From UHGV virus genome UHGV-0236088: a DNA stretch of 14,359 nt; one strand, given 5' to 3'. Every line of letters begins with the position of its first letter. Position 1 is the first letter of the stretch. The notes beneath the pieces are model-generated. The model made no database searches. It was not told the origin of the DNA and saw only the letters and a list, made by a program, of their open reading frames with translations. The stretch comes from a virus. This document shows, piece after piece, positions 1 to 10,030 of this stretch. The translations under genes were made by a program, and so were the position numbers.

Positions 1-196
1 TATTCCCCATTCGCGCGTCGTGTTCCTCTTGCGCCCGCTTATTCTCCTGTGATTTGAAGTAATAATTAACGGCAAATGTGCCTACGGTTGATAAGATACC
101 CACAAAGACGGCAATGTCATTGATGGTTATCGCGCCGAAAAAAGCAGTTACGGCCCCAGTCACATACGCGCACGCCTCCCGTATTCTGTCGAACAT
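1..196 (-). CDS. Holin, N-terminal 65 codons; gene continues past the window start
   Basis: ATG at 196-194 preceded by GGAGG (208-204). Translation MFDRIREACAYVTGAVTAFFGAITINDIAVFVGILSTVGTFAVNYYFKSQENKRAQEEHDARMGN has two hydrophobic helices followed by a charged tail (YYFK then KRAQEE), the layout of small class II or pinholin-type lambdoid holins. Position directly after a promoter-terminator module fits a first late gene. Confidence 0.55.
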   Translation of the reverse strand, partial: MFDRIREACAYVTGAVTAFFGAITINDIAVFVGILSTVGTFAVNYYFKSQENKRAQEEHDARMGN

Positions 197-208
197 AGAT
201 TTACCTCC

Positions 209-240
209 AACAAAGCAAAAACCCGGCGCGGGGGCCGGGT
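209..240 (-). terminator. Intrinsic terminator-like hairpin plus T-tract immediately upstream of the holin RBS (tR'-like)
   Basis: Minus strand reads CCCGGC-CCCCGC-GCCGGG (239-222), a perfect 6 bp GC stem, followed by TTTTTGCTTTGTT (221-209), then GGAGG and the holin ATG. Confidence 0.5.
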
Positions 241-267
241 AATTACAATTTCGCATTGTTAGGAAAT

Positions 268-296
268 ATTTTAATCCGTTTGTTTACGCTCTACAA
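268..296 (-). promoter_or_regulatory. Candidate sigma70 promoter (possible late promoter, pR'-like)
   Basis: Minus strand TTGTAG (296-291), 17 nt spacer, TAAAAT (273-268). Predicted start near 260, about 40 nt before the terminator T-tract. No ORF lies between it and the terminator. Confidence 0.25.
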
Positions 297-477
297 ATAC
301 GGCTTTACTGCTTTCTGTATATCAGGCCGTTATCAAGCAACATCTGCATATGCCAACGATCCATGCCGCTTGATTCCCAATATTTATTGCCCGCGCTTTG
401 TGTCATCACCTTATCACCTTTAACCAAATAGGCGATGTTAAATAACATGTGCAAATAGATACCGTCTTCGATCTCGT

Positions 478-660
478 TTATAGGTCGCTCACCCTCACCA
501 GTTTACCAGCATCAAGAAATATTTTGATTGTTTCTCGCGTAGTCTTAATGATTGGCGATACCCACTCGCCACAGCCAACGCGGATACGAATATCATCACC
601 TTCCACGCGGTAAAACAACCTGTCGACTACTGTTGCTGCGTACACACCATCTTCAATCAT
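478..660 (-). CDS. Hypothetical protein, 60 aa
   Basis: ORF track entry. AAGGAG 8 nt upstream of ATG at 660. ATGA overlap with the stop of the upstream gene. Confidence 0.5.
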   Translation of the reverse strand: MIEDGVYAATVVDRLFYRVEGDDIRIRVGCGEWVSPIIKTTRETIKIFLDAGKLVRVSDL

Positions 661-857
661 TTCTTGCGCTCCTTAATGGCCCGCATGATGTTGATGCGCA
701 TAGCATCAGCGAAAGCGTATATTGTAATGAAAGGCCAGAAAACCAACTCAAACCAAATAACGCCGTCACTACCTACAGCTTTCTGAAGAGCGCCCATTAA
801 AACTACACCAGCAAGGTAAAGGAGAACTACCGCAATAATAAGACATTCAATCATCAT
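657..857 (-). CDS. Small membrane protein, about 66 aa, two predicted transmembrane helices
   Basis: Translation is dominated by hydrophobic runs (IIAVVLLYLAGVVLMGAL and WFELVFWPFITIYAF). Tandem ATG ATG start with GAGGG upstream. Confidence 0.45.
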   Translation of the reverse strand: MMIECLIIAVVLLYLAGVVLMGALQKAVGSDGVIWFELVFWPFITIYAFADAMRINIMRAIKERKK

Positions 858-1104
858 CGCCCTCGTCTTCTTGTTCAGCTAGGAAATAATCAACTACGCG
901 GTAAGTCACTGGCGGGATGTATTCGAAATCATCCGAATCAAGATCAAGCGTCCGGCTGTCGCCGTCGTCGTCCATTGTGTTCATTCCCAACTCACCGAAA
1001 GGGCCGTACCCAATGTGGCCCAGATATTCGCAACCAATCGTAAAGCCAGGATATTCGCGTTTACATCTGACTTTATACAGCTTATTTGATGCGCTCAATT
1101 TCAA
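847..1104 (-). CDS. Hypothetical protein with a strongly acidic C-terminal half
   Basis: ORF track entry. The last 42 residues contain 17 Asp/Glu and 2 Arg. Start is uncertain: TTG at 1104 or 1098 (GAGGGG just upstream), or ATG at 984. Confidence 0.4.
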   Translation of the reverse strand: MKLSASNKLYKVRCKREYPGFTIGCEYLGHIGYGPFGELGMNTMDDDGDSRTLDLDSDDFEYIPPVTYRVVDYFLAEQEDEGDDD

Positions 1105-1405
1105 CCCCTCTGTTTTCTGCTTCAGTCATTTTGTATTCTGCAACCAGTTCAGCGCCAAGCAATTCCACTTCCATATCAGCGATACCCTGGAACATCAGAT
1201 AGGCAAAAACTAGGCTTTTAATTCTATCCAGGTCTTCAAGATGGTCTGCGTCAAAAGGCGGTTCAGATACGTGGAAGCATTTAACGTGCGCGTCGTCTTC
1301 AGTAGCCACACGGAAACATGCGCCGCGTTTACCTGCGAATTGTCCAATTTCTTTATCTTCTGGAAAAGATCCACGGAAAACTTTAACACTGATAAATTTA
1401 GACAT
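1082..1405 (-). CDS. Hypothetical protein, 107 aa
   Basis: GAAGGAGAG 7 nt upstream of ATG at 1405. No family recognised. Confidence 0.55.
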   Translation of the reverse strand: MSKFISVKVFRGSFPEDKEIGQFAGKRGACFRVATEDDAHVKCFHVSEPPFDADHLEDLDRIKSLVFAYLMFQGIADMEVELLGAELVAEYKMTEAENRGVEIERIK

Positions 1406-1428
1406 TGATTACTCTCCTTCGTAAGGAA

Positions 1429-1728
1429 TTAAAATTCAGCACCAGGTAAGCTACGCGCTTTATTTACCACATCGTGTTTTAACAATAAACTGGCGTGATA
1501 ACTTATGATCCCCATAATACCGACCTGTATTTCATCATTTTTTGACTTTATTATTAACAACTGGTTTTTAGTGAAGATCCTGTCTCCATCAGTGATATAT
1601 AACCAGTCACCACGTTTGCCAACAACAATGTGAGATCTGCCTAAGCTGTCTTTAAATTCATAATTACAGAAAACATCATCGTTAGGAACTTCAACAAAAC
1701 AGCAAGCAATAAATTTAGCGCTTTTCAT
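1429..1728 (-). CDS. Hypothetical protein, 99 aa (start moved to internal ATG)
   Basis: GAAGGGTG about 6 nt upstream of ATG at 1728 (MKSAKFIACCF...). The longer ORF-track start at 1758 has no RBS. Confidence 0.5.
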   Translation of the reverse strand: MKSAKFIACCFVEVPNDDVFCNYEFKDSLGRSHIVVGKRGDWLYITDGDRIFTKNQLLIIKSKNDEIQVGIMGIISYHASLLLKHDVVNKARSLPGAEF

Positions 1729-1771
1729 GATTACACCCTTCTGATTTGATGGGGCCATCCTGCCCCGTGTT

Positions 1772-1912
1772 TTATGCTTCTTCGCCTCCTTTAAACCCTA
1801 AGCACTCCGCGTACTCGTCAATGCTTAATGCTTCTTCACCTTGTGCCAGTAATTCAAAGTATCTTGCGTACAGTTCGAAAACCCAGGCCGGATATTTAGC
1901 GTTAGCGTTCAT
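1772..1912 (-). CDS. Small hypothetical protein, 46 aa (below the ORF-track cutoff)
   Basis: ATG at 1912 preceded by AAGGGGG. Translation MNANAKYPAWVFELYARYFELLAQGEEALSIDEYAECLGFKGGEEA. It fills the gap between neighbouring genes. Confidence 0.35.
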   Translation of the reverse strand: MNANAKYPAWVFELYARYFELLAQGEEALSIDEYAECLGFKGGEEA

Positions 1913-1922
1913 GGTTTCCCCC

Positions 1923-2195
1923 TTATGCCATACGTGCGAATTCAAGTGATTTGCATTCGTAGTCTTCCTCTGCCTGCATCACCACGTTGTTAATCATATG
2001 GTTTGCATCATCGAAGCCGTATTTTTTGGCGAATTCATCAGCACCGCCTTGGTGGTCATGCTCTGCGTTCATCGCTTCTACATAGTGGAACTCAAGATTG
2101 TTCAGGTAGGGACTAGAAACGCCGTCCTCTTTTTCAATCAGATCCCAAATTGCATTGAAGCGGGCTTTTGTTTCTTCGTTAATCCAGCGTTTCAT
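1923..2195 (-). CDS. Hypothetical protein, 90 aa
   Basis: GGAGGGTAG upstream of ATG at 2195. First gene downstream of the operator/promoter-like element at 2231-2276. Confidence 0.5.
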   Translation of the reverse strand: MKRWINEETKARFNAIWDLIEKEDGVSSPYLNNLEFHYVEAMNAEHDHQGGADEFAKKYGFDDANHMINNVVMQAEEDYECKSLEFARMA

Positions 2196-2230
2196 TTTTC
2201 TACCCTCCGCATCGTTCTCTCTTCAGCTTC

Positions 2231-2276
2231 TTTATAACAAAATGGCGCCACCAGAACAATGCCATTTTGTAAACTT
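2231..2276 (-). promoter_or_regulatory. Promoter/operator-like element, copy 1 of a repeated intergenic motif
   Basis: Minus strand TTGTTC (2259-2254), 17 nt spacer, TATAAA (2236-2231). Flanked by the inverted 9-mers ACAAAATGG and CCATTTTGT. Shares a 40 bp module with 8403-8483. Confidence 0.35.
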
Positions 2277-2293
2277 TGAAGGGTAGATCACAT

Positions 2294-2518
2294 TTATGCT
2301 TCTTCCGTAAAAGTAACCTTCATCGCCCCATCCGAACTACGGACAACATAACGACCAATACCGCCTAGCGGCCCTGCATACCATAAGTGACCGTAAGTGT
2401 CAGTCACGACGATAAACGGAAACTTAGGCGACAACCCCATCGGTTTTTCAGCCGTATACTGTGCGCCTTCTTCAAAACAGCCTAATTTCGATTCGTTACA
2501 CGTTAAAATCATTTTCAT
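2294..2518 (-). CDS. Small protein, 74 aa, member D of a four-gene tandem paralog array
   Basis: ATGA overlap with the upstream gene. Shared blocks FEEGAQY and IVVTDTYGHLWYA. Confidence 0.5.
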   Translation of the reverse strand: MKMILTCNESKLGCFEEGAQYTAEKPMGLSPKFPFIVVTDTYGHLWYAGPLGGIGRYVVRSSDGAMKVTFTEEA

Positions 2519-2754
2519 ACCCCTACATACGAAAACGCAGCAAAAGCACCACCACCAGCACGCGCATAAACAAGTGCCGTGCCATACCCCATCTTATAAA
2601 ATCGCCATAACTGACCCTGGTCGTCAGTAATGGCATGAATATATTCCTGATCCTTTGCGTCAACCAATGCCGCGCCAACCTCGTAGATCTTGCCATTCTT
2701 AAAAAACGCGCTGCATCGTGAGTATGTGCACTGGTATCTATGTTTCCGATTCAT
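2515..2754 (-). CDS. Small protein, 79 aa, paralog C
   Basis: GAGGTG upstream of ATG at 2754. Shared blocks FKNGKIYEVG and HAITDDQGQLWRF. Confidence 0.5.
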   Translation of the reverse strand: MNRKHRYQCTYSRCSAFFKNGKIYEVGAALVDAKDQEYIHAITDDQGQLWRFYKMGYGTALVYARAGGGAFAAFSYVGV

Positions 2755-2764
2755 AGCACCTCAC

Positions 2765-3022
2765 TTATTCCGGTTTACTGCCTTCGCGGGCGCAAAACTC
2801 CGCGATCTCACGGAAATCATGCACTATGCGATAAATATACAAACCAGCGGCGTTATTGATATGGCTAACATAAGCGAAATAAACTTTATCATCATCGCCA
2901 GTTATCGCCATTGCACCATCACCGCCCGGTGCGCCGTGGAGTTGAACGCCGCAATAGATCTTCCCTTCTTCAAAAATATTGCGGTCGCGCGTCTGCAATA
3001 CCTCAAAATATAAATGTTTCAT
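2765..3022 (-). CDS. Small protein, 85 aa, paralog B (start moved to internal ATG)
   Basis: AAAGGGG 6 nt upstream of ATG at 3022 (MKHLYF...). Shared blocks FEEGKIYCGV and MAITGDDDKVYFA. Confidence 0.5.
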   Translation of the reverse strand: MKHLYFEVLQTRDRNIFEEGKIYCGVQLHGAPGGDGAMAITGDDDKVYFAYVSHINNAAGLYIYRIVHDFREIAEFCAREGSKPE

Positions 3023-3032
3023 TGTTGCCCCT

Positions 3033-3245
3033 TTAATAACGTTCAAAGCTGGCAGCAAAACCTACACCGGATATTTCACCGCCTTCATAGCTCGGCCTGA
3101 ATACCCATATTTCGTCATGATTATCAATCAAGGCAAGGCAATTACTCATTGTGTGTGCTTCATTGCCATAAACGATGTGAACGTCATAAATACTCCCAAT
3201 CGTGAAAACACTGTCATTGCTTGAGTATGAGCATTTAACTTGCAT
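3033..3245 (-). CDS. Small protein, 70 aa, paralog A
   Basis: AAAGGGG upstream of ATG at 3245; TGATG overlap with the upstream stop. Shared blocks FTIGSIY and ALIDNHDEIWVF. Confidence 0.5.
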   Translation of the reverse strand: MQVKCSYSSNDSVFTIGSIYDVHIVYGNEAHTMSNCLALIDNHDEIWVFRPSYEGGEISGVGFAASFERY

Positions 3246-3496
3246 CAGAAAACCCCTTTATAATCGACCGTGTATTTTGCCACTAATTTCCATTCACAAT
3301 AGTTTTCCATGTCGCGAGGTTGCCAACCCTTCATCCCTACCGCACTCCGCGCAGCGTGACGGCGATAATAATCGTTATGGCTAGCTATGCACCACGGGTA
3401 CAGGACAAACATATATCCTGCCTCGTTAACCAGGATCGCCATCCGCTTTCCAGTTGCCTTATCTTTCGCCCGGAAATAACTTACCTTGATTTTCAT
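3245..3496 (-). CDS. Hypothetical protein, 83 aa
   Basis: GAGGTAA 7 nt upstream of ATG at 3496. Confidence 0.5.
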   Translation of the reverse strand: MKIKVSYFRAKDKATGKRMAILVNEAGYMFVLYPWCIASHNDYYRRHAARSAVGMKGWQPRDMENYCEWKLVAKYTVDYKGVF

Positions 3497-3707
3497 TTTT
3501 AATTACCTCGATCAGCATTTCTTCTTCCAGGTTAGCCGGGCGTTTACGAAATATCCCGGCAAAAACCAAATCATCCAGGTATCCTTTAGTGCAAAACAGC
3601 TTTTCTTCTCTCACCCCGTCAGAATCGCATCTATAAGCCTTTCCATTTATCAGAAAATAAAAGCTATAAGATGAAGGTGCCAGGCAAACATCCTCGTAAA
3701 CGTCCAT
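3459..3707 (-). CDS. Hypothetical protein, 82 aa
   Basis: GAGGGT upstream of ATG at 3707. Overlaps the next gene by 38 nt. Confidence 0.45.
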   Translation of the reverse strand: MDVYEDVCLAPSSYSFYFLINGKAYRCDSDGVREEKLFCTKGYLDDLVFAGIFRKRPANLEEEMLIEVIKNENQGKLFPGER

Positions 3708-3711
3708 AATA

Positions 3712-3939
3712 TTAACCCTCGACTACTTCCAGCCCGCGTCCCTTATCGCCAACGAAGTCGCCCAGGCTGAACGTATACGACCATGCCGGATTTATGTAAT
3801 GGTCATCAGCACCAGCGGCAATGAGATCAGCACCATTAATCATGCAAGTAATCTCATCGCTATGAACGACATTAACGACCTTACCAACAACCTGTTTCAA
3901 TGACGGGTAGCCGTGATCGTGCAAGAATTTAACTTTCAT
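3712..3939 (-). CDS. Hypothetical protein, 75 aa (start moved to internal ATG)
   Basis: AAGGGAAAG 6 nt upstream of ATG at 3939 (MKVKFLHDHG...). The longer ORF-track start has no RBS. Confidence 0.45.
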   Translation of the reverse strand: MKVKFLHDHGYPSLKQVVGKVVNVVHSDEITCMINGADLIAAGADDHYINPAWSYTFSLGDFVGDKGRGLEVVEG

Positions 3940-4222
3940 ATTTCTTTCCCTTGTAAGTAACAGCATCAGCGATAAGCAATACCGCCAGCATTTCTCCGTC
4001 ATGCAACGGGTCTGGAATAGCAAAAAATATGTCGCTGTTTTTGTCCGGCACTACTACGCGCATATTGCCTTGTTTGTCTTCATGAACAAACCACGGCTTT
4101 TCGTGTGGCTCAAACATACCGAAAAGCAATTTAAGATCTATTTCTTCTCCCTTCGTGAATAACGATACATCCGTTGTAGCGATAACTAACGCTTTCTGAT
4201 CTGCTGCTTTCTTTGCTTTCAT
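3929..4222 (-). CDS. Hypothetical protein, 97 aa
   Basis: GGAGG upstream of ATG at 4222; ATGA overlap with the upstream stop. Confidence 0.5.
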   Translation of the reverse strand: MKAKKAADQKALVIATTDVSLFTKGEEIDLKLLFGMFEPHEKPWFVHEDKQGNMRVVVPDKNSDIFFAIPDPLHDGEMLAVLLIADAVTYKGKKYES

Positions 4223-4452
4223 TCACCTGCCTCCCATCGGTCAATGCTGATTAAAAAGTCACGTATAGCGTGTCGTTCGTCGCGCGTTGGCTTGCGCTTT
4301 CTGTAGATCTTGAAGTCAAACCATTCTTTTTCTTGTTCGAAATCCATGTCGTAAGCAAGCGCCTCAATATATCCGCAGTCGTGATACTGGTACGCCACGC
4401 CAGCACGAACAAAAAAGCGGGTTTTATCCCGCTTGTGTTCATAAATACGCAT
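4219..4452 (-). CDS. Hypothetical protein, 77 aa
   Basis: GGGG 7 nt upstream of ATG at 4452. Confidence 0.5.
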   Translation of the reverse strand: MRIYEHKRDKTRFFVRAGVAYQYHDCGYIEALAYDMDFEQEKEWFDFKIYRKRKPTRDERHAIRDFLISIDRWEAGE

Positions 4453-4462
4453 ATTTACCCCG

Positions 4463-4693
4463 TTATGCAGTTGTGTAGCTGTCTACCAGCTTTTCATCCT
4501 TCATTCTTGCAAGCTGTGCAATGTTCATCGTGTAGCCGCCATCAGAGAAAAGCCACTCCGCAGCCTTGCGACGAAAAACAATATCATCATGGTTGTGCGT
4601 CCATGTAGCGATAACCACGCGCTTTCCGTCAGTGGCAAACATTGTTAATTCATTATCAACTACGTCGATAGCCTGCCATATTTTTAGCTCCAT
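4463..4693 (-). CDS. Hypothetical protein, 76 aa
   Basis: GGGGA 7 nt upstream of ATG at 4693. Confidence 0.5.
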   Translation of the reverse strand: MELKIWQAIDVVDNELTMFATDGKRVVIATWTHNHDDIVFRRKAAEWLFSDGGYTMNIAQLARMKDEKLVDSYTTA

Positions 4694-5049
4694 GATTTAT
4701 CCCCGTAAATTTTGAATAATTCCCGTGCTTCTTGATCTTCAAATAACTTCATATGCAGATCATGCAGGCGGCGCATTGTGCGGAAACGCGGTCGGAACTC
4801 CTGTCTGTTTTTAATAAACTTACCGCCAATTGAATAAATATGACCGTATGAATACCATCTATCCCCGACCCAAATTAGATAAATTTCACCCTCATAATTA
4901 AATTTGATTGTAAGCTCGTCAACCTCCATTATTAATCCTTTATCGAGGATATCATTCAGCATGTCGTCCCATTCTTTGAGGAATTGTTGCTGATACATGC
5001 CAAAAATTGTATTTGCAGCGTGGCAAAGGTAATCAAGGATTATTTGCAT
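4684..5049 (-). CDS. Hypothetical protein, 121 aa
   Basis: ORF track entry with a plausible GTGGTGA RBS. Confidence 0.5.
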   Translation of the reverse strand: MQIILDYLCHAANTIFGMYQQQFLKEWDDMLNDILDKGLIMEVDELTIKFNYEGEIYLIWVGDRWYSYGHIYSIGGKFIKNRQEFRPRFRTMRRLHDLHMKLFEDQEARELFKIYGDKSWS

Positions 5050-5053
5050 ATTG

Positions 5054-5266
5054 TCACCACATCATATAATAAACGTTATCGTAAGCTAATTGGTCCGCGT
5101 CTTCTTGCGTCATGTGCCGCGCTTCCAGAAAGAAATCTTCGTTATGCCATTCACAAACAAGCATTCGCGCCCATTTGCGGCGCTGGCGTTTATTGTGTCG
5201 CAGATCATCAAAAACCTTTAACGCTTTGTCATATGACCTTACCAGGCGTTTACGGTTACTTTTCAT
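5054..5266 (-). CDS. Hypothetical basic protein, 70 aa
   Basis: AGGAG/GGTGAG upstream of ATG at 5266. Arg/Lys-rich N-terminal half. Confidence 0.5.
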   Translation of the reverse strand: MKSNRKRLVRSYDKALKVFDDLRHNKRQRRKWARMLVCEWHNEDFFLEARHMTQEDADQLAYDNVYYMMW

Positions 5267-5471
5267 TTCTCACCACTCCTATTTCCTTGATCTCAATATT
5301 GCGCAACCGGACGTCGCACGGCGTTTCAGATTTACCAGTAAGCGCCAGCGTCAGGTTTTCAGGTGTCGTATAGAGAATTATCTCTTTACCCGTGCTAAAT
5401 TTAATTTCTATGCGGATCTCGCTTTCGTCGCCGCACAACACACGACTGATTGACAGGCCAGCTTTTTTCAT
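5256..5471 (-). CDS. Hypothetical protein, 71 aa (start moved to internal ATG)
   Basis: AAGGTGGGGGAG upstream of ATG at 5471; ATGA overlap with the upstream stop. Confidence 0.5.
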   Translation of the reverse strand: MKKAGLSISRVLCGDESEIRIEIKFSTGKEIILYTTPENLTLALTGKSETPCDVRLRNIEIKEIGVVRNEK

Positions 5472-5776
5472 TGCTCCCCCCACCTTAACATCCAATTCAC
5501 ATCACATTTAATTGCGAATACCTTAACAGGATCAGGGCCGAATAATGGATGCGTGATAGTTTTTACTTCGTACCCGAAATAAGGCAGGTTTATGTTCCGG
5601 TGCGCTTCGTGGCTGGCTGGATACCCCAGCTTAATGATCAGGCGTTCATATTCCCGCCCCTCCAGGCGTTTACGCCAATAGTCATTGTAAAGCCTGTATT
5701 CTTCCACCTTCTTTCCCGCCCGGATGGCGTGGAAATATTCCCCTTTCAGGTTCAAGTGTAGGTCTTTACTTGCCAT
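5468..5776 (-). CDS. Hypothetical protein, 102 aa; possible ASCH/PUA-like fold (weak)
   Basis: N-terminal HLNLKGEYFHAIRAGKKVEEYR resembles the ASCH/DUF3850 beta-barrel signature (Y/F..I..G.K..E.R). Recalled from memory only, no search run. Confidence 0.45.
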   Translation of the reverse strand: MASKDLHLNLKGEYFHAIRAGKKVEEYRLYNDYWRKRLEGREYERLIIKLGYPASHEAHRNINLPYFGYEVKTITHPLFGPDPVKVFAIKCDVNWMLRWGEQ

Positions 5777-6035
5777 CGCTATGATCCTGTAAGCAGTCGT
5801 TGTAGCCTTCGATGTATCCGGTTAATCCTGTGTTACTTACTGACCAATCAGCCGAACGGCGCTTGATGGCCTTGTCCATAGTCATCTCGTCACCTGGCCC
5901 GCCTGGCTCGATGTATTTTCTTAAATCCCTTACTATCCACGACCCTAATTGTTGCGTATCACTGCACACACGCGCCGTTAATGTCAGATTATTAACCAGC
6001 TTTGCGAATAGATGTTCTTTTAATTTAGGCTTCAT
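5766..6035 (-). CDS. Hypothetical protein, 89 aa
   Basis: GAGGTGAAGG upstream of ATG at 6035. Confidence 0.5.
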   Translation of the reverse strand: MKPKLKEHLFAKLVNNLTLTARVCSDTQQLGSWIVRDLRKYIEPGGPGDEMTMDKAIKRRSADWSVSNTGLTGYIEGYNDCLQDHSDGK

Positions 6036-6225
6036 CCTTCACCTCGCGACGATAGATTTCTACTGGCTTAACCGGAATAGCGTTAAAATCCCCTTCATCC
6101 AGTGCGGCAATAAACGTTAGCGCCAACCGTGCTTCAACACCGCTTAAATACTTGCACCATGCATCACCGTTATAATCTTCAAAAAGAATAATCACTTTTT
6201 TCATGTTTATCTCTTGTTGTTTCAT
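6025..6225 (-). CDS. Hypothetical protein, 66 aa, translationally coupled to Q
   Basis: TAATG overlap with the Q stop codon. An alternative ATG at 6204 would give MKKVIILF.... Confidence 0.45.
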   Translation of the reverse strand: MKQQEINMKKVIILFEDYNGDAWCKYLSGVEARLALTFIAALDEGDFNAIPVKPVEIYRREVKDEA

Positions 6226-6947
6226 TATTCACCCCGTGTCACTCGTTTAATTTCGTTATCAGCCTGCGCCTCTTCTTTGAACAATTCAGCAATGGCGTCT
6301 TCATAGAAAGCACGGTATTTCTTCCACCACGTTGATCGGCTTACCGGAAATACAAGCTGATTAACCGCACGCCGGACAAGATCTACAGGGAAACGCGAGT
6401 ACCCGCGCCCGCCGCAATGCTGGCACGTTTTGAACACTGGCATTTCCGCTGCTTCACTGGCTGCTTTATCCGGTATCTCGCCGCGCCCTTTGCATCGTTT
6501 ACAATGATTGCGAACTTTTCCATGCCCCTTGCATTTTTTGCAAAGGTGTTTTTCTCCGTAGTCGTCAAACGTAAATTTATATCCGCCGCAATCCATACAA
6601 GTTTTTTCTGTCGCGGCACTCTGGCAGTAATCCCGAAACGCGAAAACGGCAACAAGAATAATAAGATCATTGCGTTTGTCCTCGTCCAGCTCCATGATGT
6701 ATTCGTAATCTTTTGCCATAGCTCTTAAACGCTCTGTAAGCAAAACTACGGCCCTGTGTTTTTCGGCTTGCGATAATTCCATCTTCCCTAAAAAAGCGCT
6801 ATAACCAAGCTCTACGCGCGATTGCGCCATACCTGCTGCGGTTAGTGCATCAGTAGTATTAAGCGAGTCTGGGGACGTGCCCCGGCTTTCATCTGACAAA
6901 CGCGGTGATTTTGGGAGGTGGAATTTAAGAATAGATTCCAAATTCAT
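6225..6947 (-). CDS. Late-gene antitermination protein Q (Phage_antitermQ-type)
   Basis: 240 aa. N-terminus MNLESILKFHLPKSPRLSD..., the segment MAQSRVELGYSAFLGKMELSQAEK, DYCQSAAT, several CxxC pairs, GYSRFP and the C-terminal KEEAQADNEIKRVTR match the Q family of Stx and Qin-type lambdoid phages as I recall it. GGGGG RBS. Confidence 0.7.
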   Translation of the reverse strand: MNLESILKFHLPKSPRLSDESRGTSPDSLNTTDALTAAGMAQSRVELGYSAFLGKMELSQAEKHRAVVLLTERLRAMAKDYEYIMELDEDKRNDLIILVAVFAFRDYCQSAATEKTCMDCGGYKFTFDDYGEKHLCKKCKGHGKVRNHCKRCKGRGEIPDKAASEAAEMPVFKTCQHCGGRGYSRFPVDLVRRAVNQLVFPVSRSTWWKKYRAFYEDAIAELFKEEAQADNEIKRVTRGE

Positions 6948-8326: not shown

Positions 8327-8402
8327 AATGCTCCCTCCCTTTAAGGTGATTTCTACGCATTTCAGCGCTGCCGGATTTTTAAAGAGCATTTCGTTTGCTT
8401 GA

Positions 8403-9750: not shown

Positions 9751-10030
9751 TTGGATCGTACCTCTTATCACGAATAGCTTCAGCTCTATCAAACTTCAAA
9801 TCAAGTCGAGTTGAAATGCAACCACATTGAGGGTTAAGCATAGAAGGCGGCAATCCCTTACAACTGGTTATAGCTTCATCTTTTATTAATCCACCATTCA
9901 GCGGCATATCAAAAACAGCCTGTTTCTTTCTTTGTTCTTCCTCACGTTCCGTTAATATTTGCTCAGCTTTTAGCGCGTTATAGCTAATTAAATCAATTAG
10001 TGTGTCTGTCGGATCGCTGTTATTGCTCAA
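9731..10030 (-). CDS. Hypothetical protein, 99 aa; TTG start or downstream part of a TGA-interrupted gene
   Basis: In the same reading frame as the 10073-10231 ORF, separated only by a TGA at 10075-10073 and 14 sense codons. GAGG lies 5 nt before the TTG at 10030. Confidence 0.35.
   Translation of the reverse strand: MSNNSDPTDTLIDLISYNALKAEQILTEREEEQRKKQAVFDMPLNGGLIKDEAITSCKGLPPSMLNPQCGCISTRLDLKFDRAEAIRDKRYDPNEKGDN

Follow-up and report, generated by a model that had tools for sequence, protein, structure and literature searches.

A candidate late-operon control cassette ahead of the holin gene, 5.9 kb from the Q gene, in an mEp021-like phage genome

The viral genome UHGV-0236088 was analysed over a stretch of 14,359 nucleotides (nt; referred to below as the window), with attention centred on a short non-coding region ahead of its holin gene, where a preliminary description had placed a late promoter, a short leader and a terminator of the kind on which Q-type antiterminators act. 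All long open reading frames (ORFs) of the window lie on the minus strand of the ORF map, and its DNA is that of a temperate coliphage of the mEp021-like (mEpimmI) group (PMC11893012; GenBank MH706966), to which it shows 85-90% DNA identity over the holin end. The first 1.5 kb of the window is 85-89% identical to seven phage records, viz. the 'mEpimmI' coliphages mEp021, mEp010, mEp013, mEp044, mEp515 and mEp554 and the phage MagusPhagus, and this part is also matched by prophages in 35 of 5,426 complete E. coli genomes. Read from high to low coordinates, the minus strand carries a nutR2-like site, NinG, RusA, Q, about 24 small ORFs, a gap and the holin gene. The ORFs that follow Q are packed down to position 305, and the non-coding gap ahead of the holin gene (109 nt, 304-197, minus strand) is the first sizeable gap after Q to contain a strong terminator. 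The holin matches Pfam PF16080 (E 1.5e-14), and in related phages the genes downstream of it are those for lysozyme, an Rz-type lysis protein, terminase and portal. The features upon which the following account depends are these:

6225-6947, minus strand: gene for a Q-lambda-family antiterminator of 240 amino acids (Pfam PF03589, E 1.1e-29)
305-6225, minus strand: about 24 tightly packed small orphan ORFs (49-121 amino acids), from the ORF map
291-296, minus strand: TTGTAG, the previously proposed -35 hexamer, weak (3 of 6 matches to TTGACA) and lineage-specific
274-285, minus strand: conserved promoter-spacer block AAACAAACGGAT, in the position of lambda's Q-binding element
268-273, minus strand: TAAAAT, -10 hexamer, 5 of 6 consensus matches, 17-nt spacer from TTGTAG
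255-260, minus strand: AACAAT, -10-like hexamer at predicted +1 to +6 (start at A260), candidate sigma70-dependent pause element
209-260, minus strand: outer stem, AACAAUGCGAAA (260-249) with UUUUGCUUUGUU (220-209), 11 of 12 positions pairing, enclosing the terminator hairpin
221-240, minus strand: intrinsic terminator hairpin ACCCGGC/GCCGGGT, loop CCCCGC (233-228), 7 pairs of which 6 are G-C
1-208, minus strand: ribosome-binding site (RBS) GGAGG (208-204) and HP1-family holin gene, the first late gene (ATG 196-194, running out of the window end)

The TTGTAG-17-TAAAAT pair (296-268), the hairpin with its T-tract and the holin RBS are all present where the preliminary description had placed them. 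What it had overlooked is the hexamer AACAAT, which follows the -10 after 7 nt and in which the critical positions 2 and 6 are occupied by A and T, respectively. Written in full, the module reads TTGTAG-17-TAAAAT-ATTTCCT-AACAAT-GCGAAATTGTAATT-hairpin-TTTTT, with 14 nt between AACAAT and the terminator, and in position and form AACAAT matches the AACGAT of lambda and P22, the AACAGT of ES18, the AATGAT of Kluyvera and the AATAAT of Xenorhabdus. A pause element is thus present at the level of sequence, and pausing itself is predicted. The T-run (221-217) is entered directly from the hairpin (A240-T221) and is then followed by the RBS. This hairpin is the first-listed terminator-like site in the scan of the window, the terminator exceeds chance, and the same hairpin is annotated as a terminator in the records of mEp021 (TERM_5, score 100) and mEp010 (T9). 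A terminator designated 't5', which may be the same as TERM_5, is among those demonstrated experimentally in the mEpimmI group (PMC11893012). If transcription were to start at A260, then the hairpin would begin at +21 and the terminated RNA is predicted to be about 44-47 nt long.

The conservation of this module was assessed in 46 IMG/VR loci whose Q proteins are 81-100% identical, together with GenBank phages and prophages, giving an alignment of 35 distinct sequences. In this alignment, a compact block of about 90 bp, extending from about -25 to the RBS, is conserved. No column varies in the -10 (0 of 6), in AACAAT (0 of 6) or in the GCGAAA sequence (0 of 6), i.e. 0 of 18 in total, and in the spacer block AAACAAACGGAT 3 of 12 columns vary, with a mean pi of 0.059 as against 0.41-0.48 just upstream. 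The number of variable columns is 26 of 30 for the 30 nt upstream of -25 and 33 of 63 for the third codon positions of the holin gene. The stem of the terminator is invariant, whereas its loop is variable. Further, the flanks of the module are mosaic on both sides, as differing small ORFs abut it upstream and a different holin is joined to it downstream in three loci. The cassette lies directly before the holin gene in 51 of 51 loci, and it occurs once per genome and only in the mEp-type phage group. A scan of IMG/VR for GATTAAAAT-N6/7-AACAATGC returned 47 mEp-type contigs and 23 apparently chance matches, none of them directly after a Q gene. This pattern of variation supports the view that the module is under purifying selection.

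Two more distant lineages are informative in this regard. In a prophage whose Q is 75% identical (L078), the corresponding region reads TAAAAT-ATCCTC-AACAAT, with a spacing of 6 nt, and the stop codon of the upstream ORF lies inside the -10. On contigs of the L074 type, which are about 53 kb long and encode a Q of only 47% identity, the gene order is NinG, RusA, a small ORF, Q, eleven ORFs (ten of them small, about 3 kb in all), a gap and the holin gene, and the gap reads ...TTTTAAACAATATCGGG-TATAAT-TCCCTC-AATAAT-GGCAAAGATGTATTTAT-(AAGGCTGGAA/TTCCGGCCTT hairpin)-TATTTTTTT-GGGAGG-ATG. Thus, TATAAT is here followed after 6 nt by AATAAT and then by a strong hairpin, which is unlike that of the window and occupies the same place. 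The AAACAA portion of the spacer block is kept at the same place in both lineages, and in L074, where the sequence has otherwise diverged wholesale, the pattern is still accompanied by AAACAA at about -25 and by a TG at about +15. The arrangement of a -10, a gap of 6-7 nt and AAYNNT within the 64 nt before the hairpin was obtained in about 6% of dinucleotide shuffles, a figure that holds for each gap, and the joint probability is about 0.004 when the two lineages are treated as independent.

The protein encoded at 6225-6947 is, on sequence grounds, a true member of the Q-lambda family. In BLASTP comparison it shows 35% identity to lambda Q over its full length (E 6e-49), and its four zinc-ribbon cysteines, as well as much of its N-terminal segment, are invariant in the family alignment. 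In lambda Q, this N-terminal segment forms the 'nozzle' at the RNA exit (PMC9388147). In comparison with lambda Q, the protein has an extra insert of 31 amino acids with two added CxxC pairs in the zinc-ribbon arm (6510-6600, minus strand), and the arm with this insert is the part which contacts the Q-binding element (QBE) DNA and sigma region 4. The Q proteins of the ES18, HK225 and Bp96115 types, in common with that of the window, carry insertions at this point of the arm; as their inserts are longer still than 31 amino acids, the length of the arm varies across the family. Because the protein is a full-length homologue of lambda Q, it needs a target consisting of PR', a pause element and a terminator, as in the cassette described for lambda (PMC9388147). 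However, the ATG of the next ORF overlaps the Q stop codon, no intergenic space is present after Q, and hence the canonical position of PR' is occupied by coding sequence.

To see what such targets look like elsewhere, the DNA after Q was read in lambda, P22, ES18, Bp96115 and HK225, in prophages of Kluyvera, Xenorhabdus, Erwinia, Serratia, Yokenella, Enterobacter and Tatumella, and in the unclassified isolate Bacterium BS0013. All 13 distinct sequences share a common layout that starts 25-70 nt after the Q stop codon. It consists of a -35 (TTGACx, TTTACx or TTGCAA), a spacer of 16-17 nt, a -10 (TAAATT, TAATTT or similar), an AAYNNT hexamer (AACGAT, AACAGT, AACACT, AATGAT, AATAAT or AATGGT) located 6-7 nt after the -10, and an intrinsic terminator 20-55 nt beyond this -10-like hexamer. 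The P22 record carries annotations for PR', qut and tR' and puts the probable 5' end of the RNA at the first A of AACGAT; the terminator lies 30 nt further on, giving a leader of about 60 nt. The late promoter, gene 23 and t-late region of P22 therefore has a short leader like that of the window. As the leaders of P22 and of the family are short, a short leader is the norm and the 194 nt of lambda, against about 45 nt in the window, are the outlier; the preliminary description had set the leader against that of lambda, but its shortness is not an anomaly.

With the lambda PR'-qut-tR' region, the window shares the antiterminator family, a similar -10 (TAAATT in lambda, TAAAAT here), the gap of 6-7 nt, a similar pause hexamer (AACGAT and AACAAT, respectively), an intrinsic terminator further downstream and late genes that begin with those for lysis. 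However, the lambda cassette begins about 45 nt after the Q stop codon, whereas 5.9 kb and about 24 ORFs separate that of the window from Q; the -35 of lambda (TTGACT) is strong and a TTGACT-like element stands beside its pause hexamer, and both of these features are weak or absent in the window; the lambda spacer has no sequence likeness to the block AAACAAAYRGAT discussed below; and the terminator of the window, unlike that of lambda, runs straight into the holin RBS. In ES18, Bp96115 and Serratia, whose Q proteins likewise have insertions in the zinc-ribbon arm, a T/C-rich stretch precedes the pause hexamer as it does in the window (TTTCT AACAGT compared with TTCCT AACAAT). The cassettes of the P22, ES18 and HK225 types nevertheless differ from that of the window in being located directly after Q and in having a recognisable -35 (TTGACT, TTTACA and TTTACT). 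A Q-lambda-type late cassette has been defined as a Q gene with PR', a sigma-dependent pause element, a QBE and a terminator (PMC9388147). In the window, a Q-lambda protein, a pause-element sequence, a nearby terminator and downstream late genes are all found, but the PR' unit does not adjoin Q, the two being 5.9 kb apart here and 1.9-6.7 kb apart in 50 relatives. The displacement from Q, which the preliminary description had put at about 5.7 kb, is slightly larger, at 5.9 kb, when measured from the Q stop (6225) to the module (296-209).

The distance from the Q stop codon to the module in these 50 related loci ranges from 1,924 to 6,722 nt and the gene content of the intervening array differs among them. 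None of the 23 array ORFs tested gave a Pfam match, and we infer that the array forms part of the early transcription unit. A large accessory block between Q and the lysis genes is also a feature of the Stx-converting lambdoid phages, which are arranged as Q-PR'-tR'-accessory genes-lysis. However, in the Stx phages these genes lie downstream of PR'/tR' and are late and Q-dependent, whereas in the window the array lies upstream of the module and should be early and Q-independent.

Based on these observations, the region 296-209 (minus strand) is probably, though by no means certainly, a control cassette of the late operon equivalent to lambda PR'-qut-tR', which has become uncoupled from Q by a hypervariable array of early genes. 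If this reading is correct, then host sigma70 RNA polymerase would initiate at about A260 from the TAAAAT -10, and sigma region 2 would re-bind AACAAT (+1 to +6, non-template strand), so that the polymerase would be held in a pause close to the promoter, with the conserved TG at +14/+15 marking the probable place. In the absence of Q, the polymerase would escape, be halted after another 20 nt by the hairpin and T-run and release an RNA of about 45 nt. Once Q had accumulated from its gene 5.9 kb upstream, it would bind the DNA just upstream, for which AAACAA...GAT at -25 to -13 (the block AAACAAAYRGAT) is the candidate QBE by its position, and would load onto the paused polymerase, rendering it resistant to the terminator, so that the holin, lysozyme, Rz-type lysis and morphogenesis genes would then be transcribed. 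The same terminator would also halt unmodified early transcripts arriving through the small-ORF array. This last role had been singled out in the preliminary description, where the terminator was said to double as the end of the early operon; however, there is nothing special in it, as lambda tR' is also the first terminator for unmodified early transcripts after Q. The resemblance to pR', 6S RNA and tR' that was proposed there is supported in part, by the true Q homologue, by the pattern of the module and by its conservation, but not by the proposed -35, a weak hexamer in whose place 13 of 51 close relatives, and the more distant ones too, have unrelated sequence.

A number of results weigh against this interpretation. 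First among these is the -35, where TTGTAG is found in 21 of the 51 loci, TTGTGG in 14, TTGTAT in 3 and ATCGCG in 13, and where 4 of 6 columns vary among the 35 distinct sequences. It is thus both a poor match (3 of 6) and unconserved, and 13 of the 51 close relatives, as well as L078 and L074, lack a TTG at the right distance. No extended -10 is present at TAAAAT, and a consensus promoter scan of the window did not list TTGTAG-17-TAAAAT, because TTGTAG matches the -35 consensus at only three of its six positions. By our own position-weight score, the pair ranks 16th in the 14.4-kb window, and the two promoter hexamers are not above chance. In addition, the loose pattern -10/N5-8/AAC[AG][AG]T is uninformative when taken alone, with 3 matches in the window where 2.5 are expected. 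No co-variation is seen between the Q variants of 240 and 242 amino acids (81-100% identical) and either the -35 class or the spacer block, which tells against a promoter. A profile made from the 13 PR' regions of the family, when used with nhmmer on the window and four mEp loci, missed 296-240 and found nothing significant, and the likeness is therefore one of the arrangement of elements and not of sequence. The invariance of AACAATGCGAAA could reflect pairing with the flank of the U-run, and as the outer stem surrounds the terminator, part of the invariance could serve RNA structure instead of pausing. Finally, no description of a late promoter, of a pause element or of a target for Q is given either in the paper on the mEpimmI group (PMC11893012) or in the sequence records.

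Some other sites were considered and set aside. The best nhmmer match, 6010-5975 (minus strand; E 0.09), was rejected as a relic of PR' or an alternative to it, as it lies inside an ORF with codon-like variation, lacks the T at position 6 and a terminator, and occurs in only 18 loci. The sequence TGTAAT (246-241), tried as a second -10-like hexamer, ends in C in many relatives and was rejected as well. At the other minus-strand sites between Q and the holin gene, viz. the gap at 2196-2293 and a terminator-like site at 4434-4415, no matching -10/pause pattern was found.

The structure of the predicted leader has a direct bearing on the most serious of the alternatives. The minimum-energy structure of 260-196 given by RNAfold has an energy of -21.9 kcal/mol (z = -2.5), and the same nested architecture is predicted for the mEp variants, L078 and L074 despite their differing sequences (z = -2.0 to -4.2). 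The two arms of the outer stem are both invariant within the mEp group, and the stem begins exactly at the predicted +1, which would fit a protective 5'-terminal stem on the late mRNA. If the region were only a terminator with the 5' untranslated region of the holin gene, and no promoter were present, then the hairpin would simply end the early or accessory operon, the AT-rich conservation would be that of AACAAUGCGAAA as the outer stem of a nested terminator or of an mRNA-stabilising structure, and the late genes would be reached either by read-through of polymerase modified by the N-like protein Gp17 or from a late promoter located elsewhere. The hexamers that are not above chance, the unconserved -35 and the outer stem predicted in all lineages are as expected if this is so. 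The group is, moreover, known to have an N-like antitermination system (Gp17) with three nut sites, including nutR2 (PMC11893012), the last of which lies upstream, and an element located after the lysis genes (described below) shows that conservation of a TATAAAAT can be due purely to its place in a long hairpin. However, TAAAAT (TATAAT in L074) and AAACAA are invariant although they lie outside any predicted stem, and the AATAAT of L074 is mostly unpaired and keeps its -10-like form with only two of its bases in a stem. An intact Q-lambda homologue would also be left without a target anywhere in the 10 kb after Q. On this evidence, a terminator lacking a promoter is an unlikely explanation, albeit one that deserves to be kept in view.

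A more elaborate form of the cassette interpretation goes beyond what has been proposed above and is, taken as a whole, rather doubtful. In this form, the cassette is split, with Q at the end of a nin-like region and its target displaced by 2-7 kb through a rapidly evolving array of small orphan genes that rides on early N-type antiterminated transcription; the conserved -35 has been lost, the long-armed Q (or some other phage factor binding at AAACAA) may recruit the polymerase as well and would then be both an activator and an antiterminator, and the nested outer stem is a functional part of the switch.

It is about as doubtful, or slightly more so, that the promoter is real without being the Q loading site, or the only one. 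In that event, it would be an activator-dependent late promoter, as the missing -35 might suggest, the terminator would be bypassed in some other manner and Q would act elsewhere, for example at the element downstream of the lysis cassette (L001 9900-9965), where the mEp group has TAAAAT-6-AACGGT. That element fits the loose pattern, is conserved and has mosaic flanks, and its fit to the pattern counts against the cassette interpretation. However, its TATAAAAT and AACGG are the arms of a long hairpin in which a compensatory change from G-C to A-U has occurred, and in L074 the corresponding AACATC lacks the essential T at position 6. Further, a PR' placed after the lysis genes would exclude these genes from the late operon, unlike the situation in every Q-lambda-type phage examined, and the ORFs of the window include no other evident late activator.

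That the leader is an additional nut-like (boxA/boxB) site for Gp17 is very improbable: a boxB-type hairpin with a 5-bp stem and a GNRA-like loop can be drawn (ACAAU-GCGAA-AUUGU, 259-245) and the group does use three nut sites, but no boxA lies nearby, the 3' arm reads ACTGT, ACTAT or AGTGT in about half of the relatives, so that a pair is lost without compensation, and the nutR2-like site of the window (boxA 8388-8379, boxB 8368-8355) differs from it. As it is not maintained in the relatives, this hairpin was rejected both as a boxB and as a 5' hairpin.

The mEpimmI phages are a recently described group which is as common in the human gut as the lambdoid phages, and it is their early (N-like) antitermination that has been studied and not their late switch. 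If the module is the target of Q, it provides a precise site for the control of late genes in this group, and it would follow that the loading site can lie apart from the Q gene, whereas the textbook definition of the cassette takes the two to be neighbours. A hypervariable set of about 8-25 orphan genes, which are candidates for host takeover or anti-defence, would then lie in an early, Q-independent unit, and this affects how they should be studied. The compact module of about 90 bp, with its very short distance from pause to terminator, could also suit in vitro work on loading of Q-lambda-type proteins. If, however, only a terminator is present, then the finding is an ordinary one.

A few observations made in the course of this work concern leader RNAs more generally. 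In single-sequence folds, most lambda-type leaders form a hairpin from their first nucleotides. In most Q-lambda-type late leaders, the first 4-8 nt, i.e. the pause hexamer, are complementary to a segment located 12-25 nt downstream (AACGA/UCGUU, AAUGA/UCAUU, AACGAUGG/CCAUAGUU), giving a 5'-terminal hairpin with apparent co-variation; the set examined for this (L007, L054-L066 and L071) includes lambda, P22, HK225, Erwinia, Yokenella, Enterobacter, Tatumella and others. RNAalifold gave no consensus structure for the family leaders because the 3' partners are misaligned. In Rfam 15, the only match was to rnk_pseudo, at 23.7 bits against a gathering threshold of 55 (E 0.17).

The element downstream of the lysis cassette, which lies outside the window, is a second conserved non-coding element, bordered on one side by the lysis cassette and on the other by the gene that precedes the small terminase, in L001 (mEp021; 9900-9965), L074 (15470-15535) and about 30 other loci. 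Its sequence forms a long imperfect hairpin, ATAAAATTCTGGAAACGG...CCGTTTTCAGTGTTTTAT, in which CTGG..CCAG has undergone a compensatory change to CTGA..TTAG; the flanks are mosaic on both sides, and the sequence is recognisable even in L074. The element may serve as a terminator, as a processing site or as a site related to packaging.

Within the early region of the window, the nut-like site (8355-8388, minus strand) consists of the boxA TGCTCTTTAA followed by the boxB-like hairpin GCGCU-GAAA-UGCGU, and it sits between a methyltransferase-like ORF and NinG, which is the place given to nutR2 in the mEpimmI group (PMC11893012). Just upstream of it, a 12-bp palindrome, AATGGCGCCATT, occurs twice on the minus strand, 30 bp apart (8476-8465 and 8446-8435), and a related palindrome, GGCGCCATTTT, is present within the gap at 2196-2293 (2240-2262, minus strand). 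These palindromes could be operator-like binding sites or weak hairpins.

The terminator-like hairpin in the middle of the array (4415-4434, minus strand) reads AAGCGGGATAAAACCCGCTT followed by TTTTTG and lies within the first codons of the ORF at 4219-4452. Several of the ORFs at 2294-3245, judged by eye, resemble diverged paralogues with an N-terminal '...G.IY...' pattern, and the arrays of relatives include a Lar-like anti-restriction gene (L080), a HAD/PNKP-like gene (L074) and a PAPS-reductase-like gene (L078). In twelve loci (L005, L011-L013, L016, L022, L029, L030, L040, L044, L049 and L052), an insert of about 230 nt immediately precedes the module. Both ends of this insert carry the boundary sequence TAAAGCCGTATTTGTAG(AGCG), which suggests that the stretch, inclusive of the '-35', acts as a recombination linker between ORF modules.

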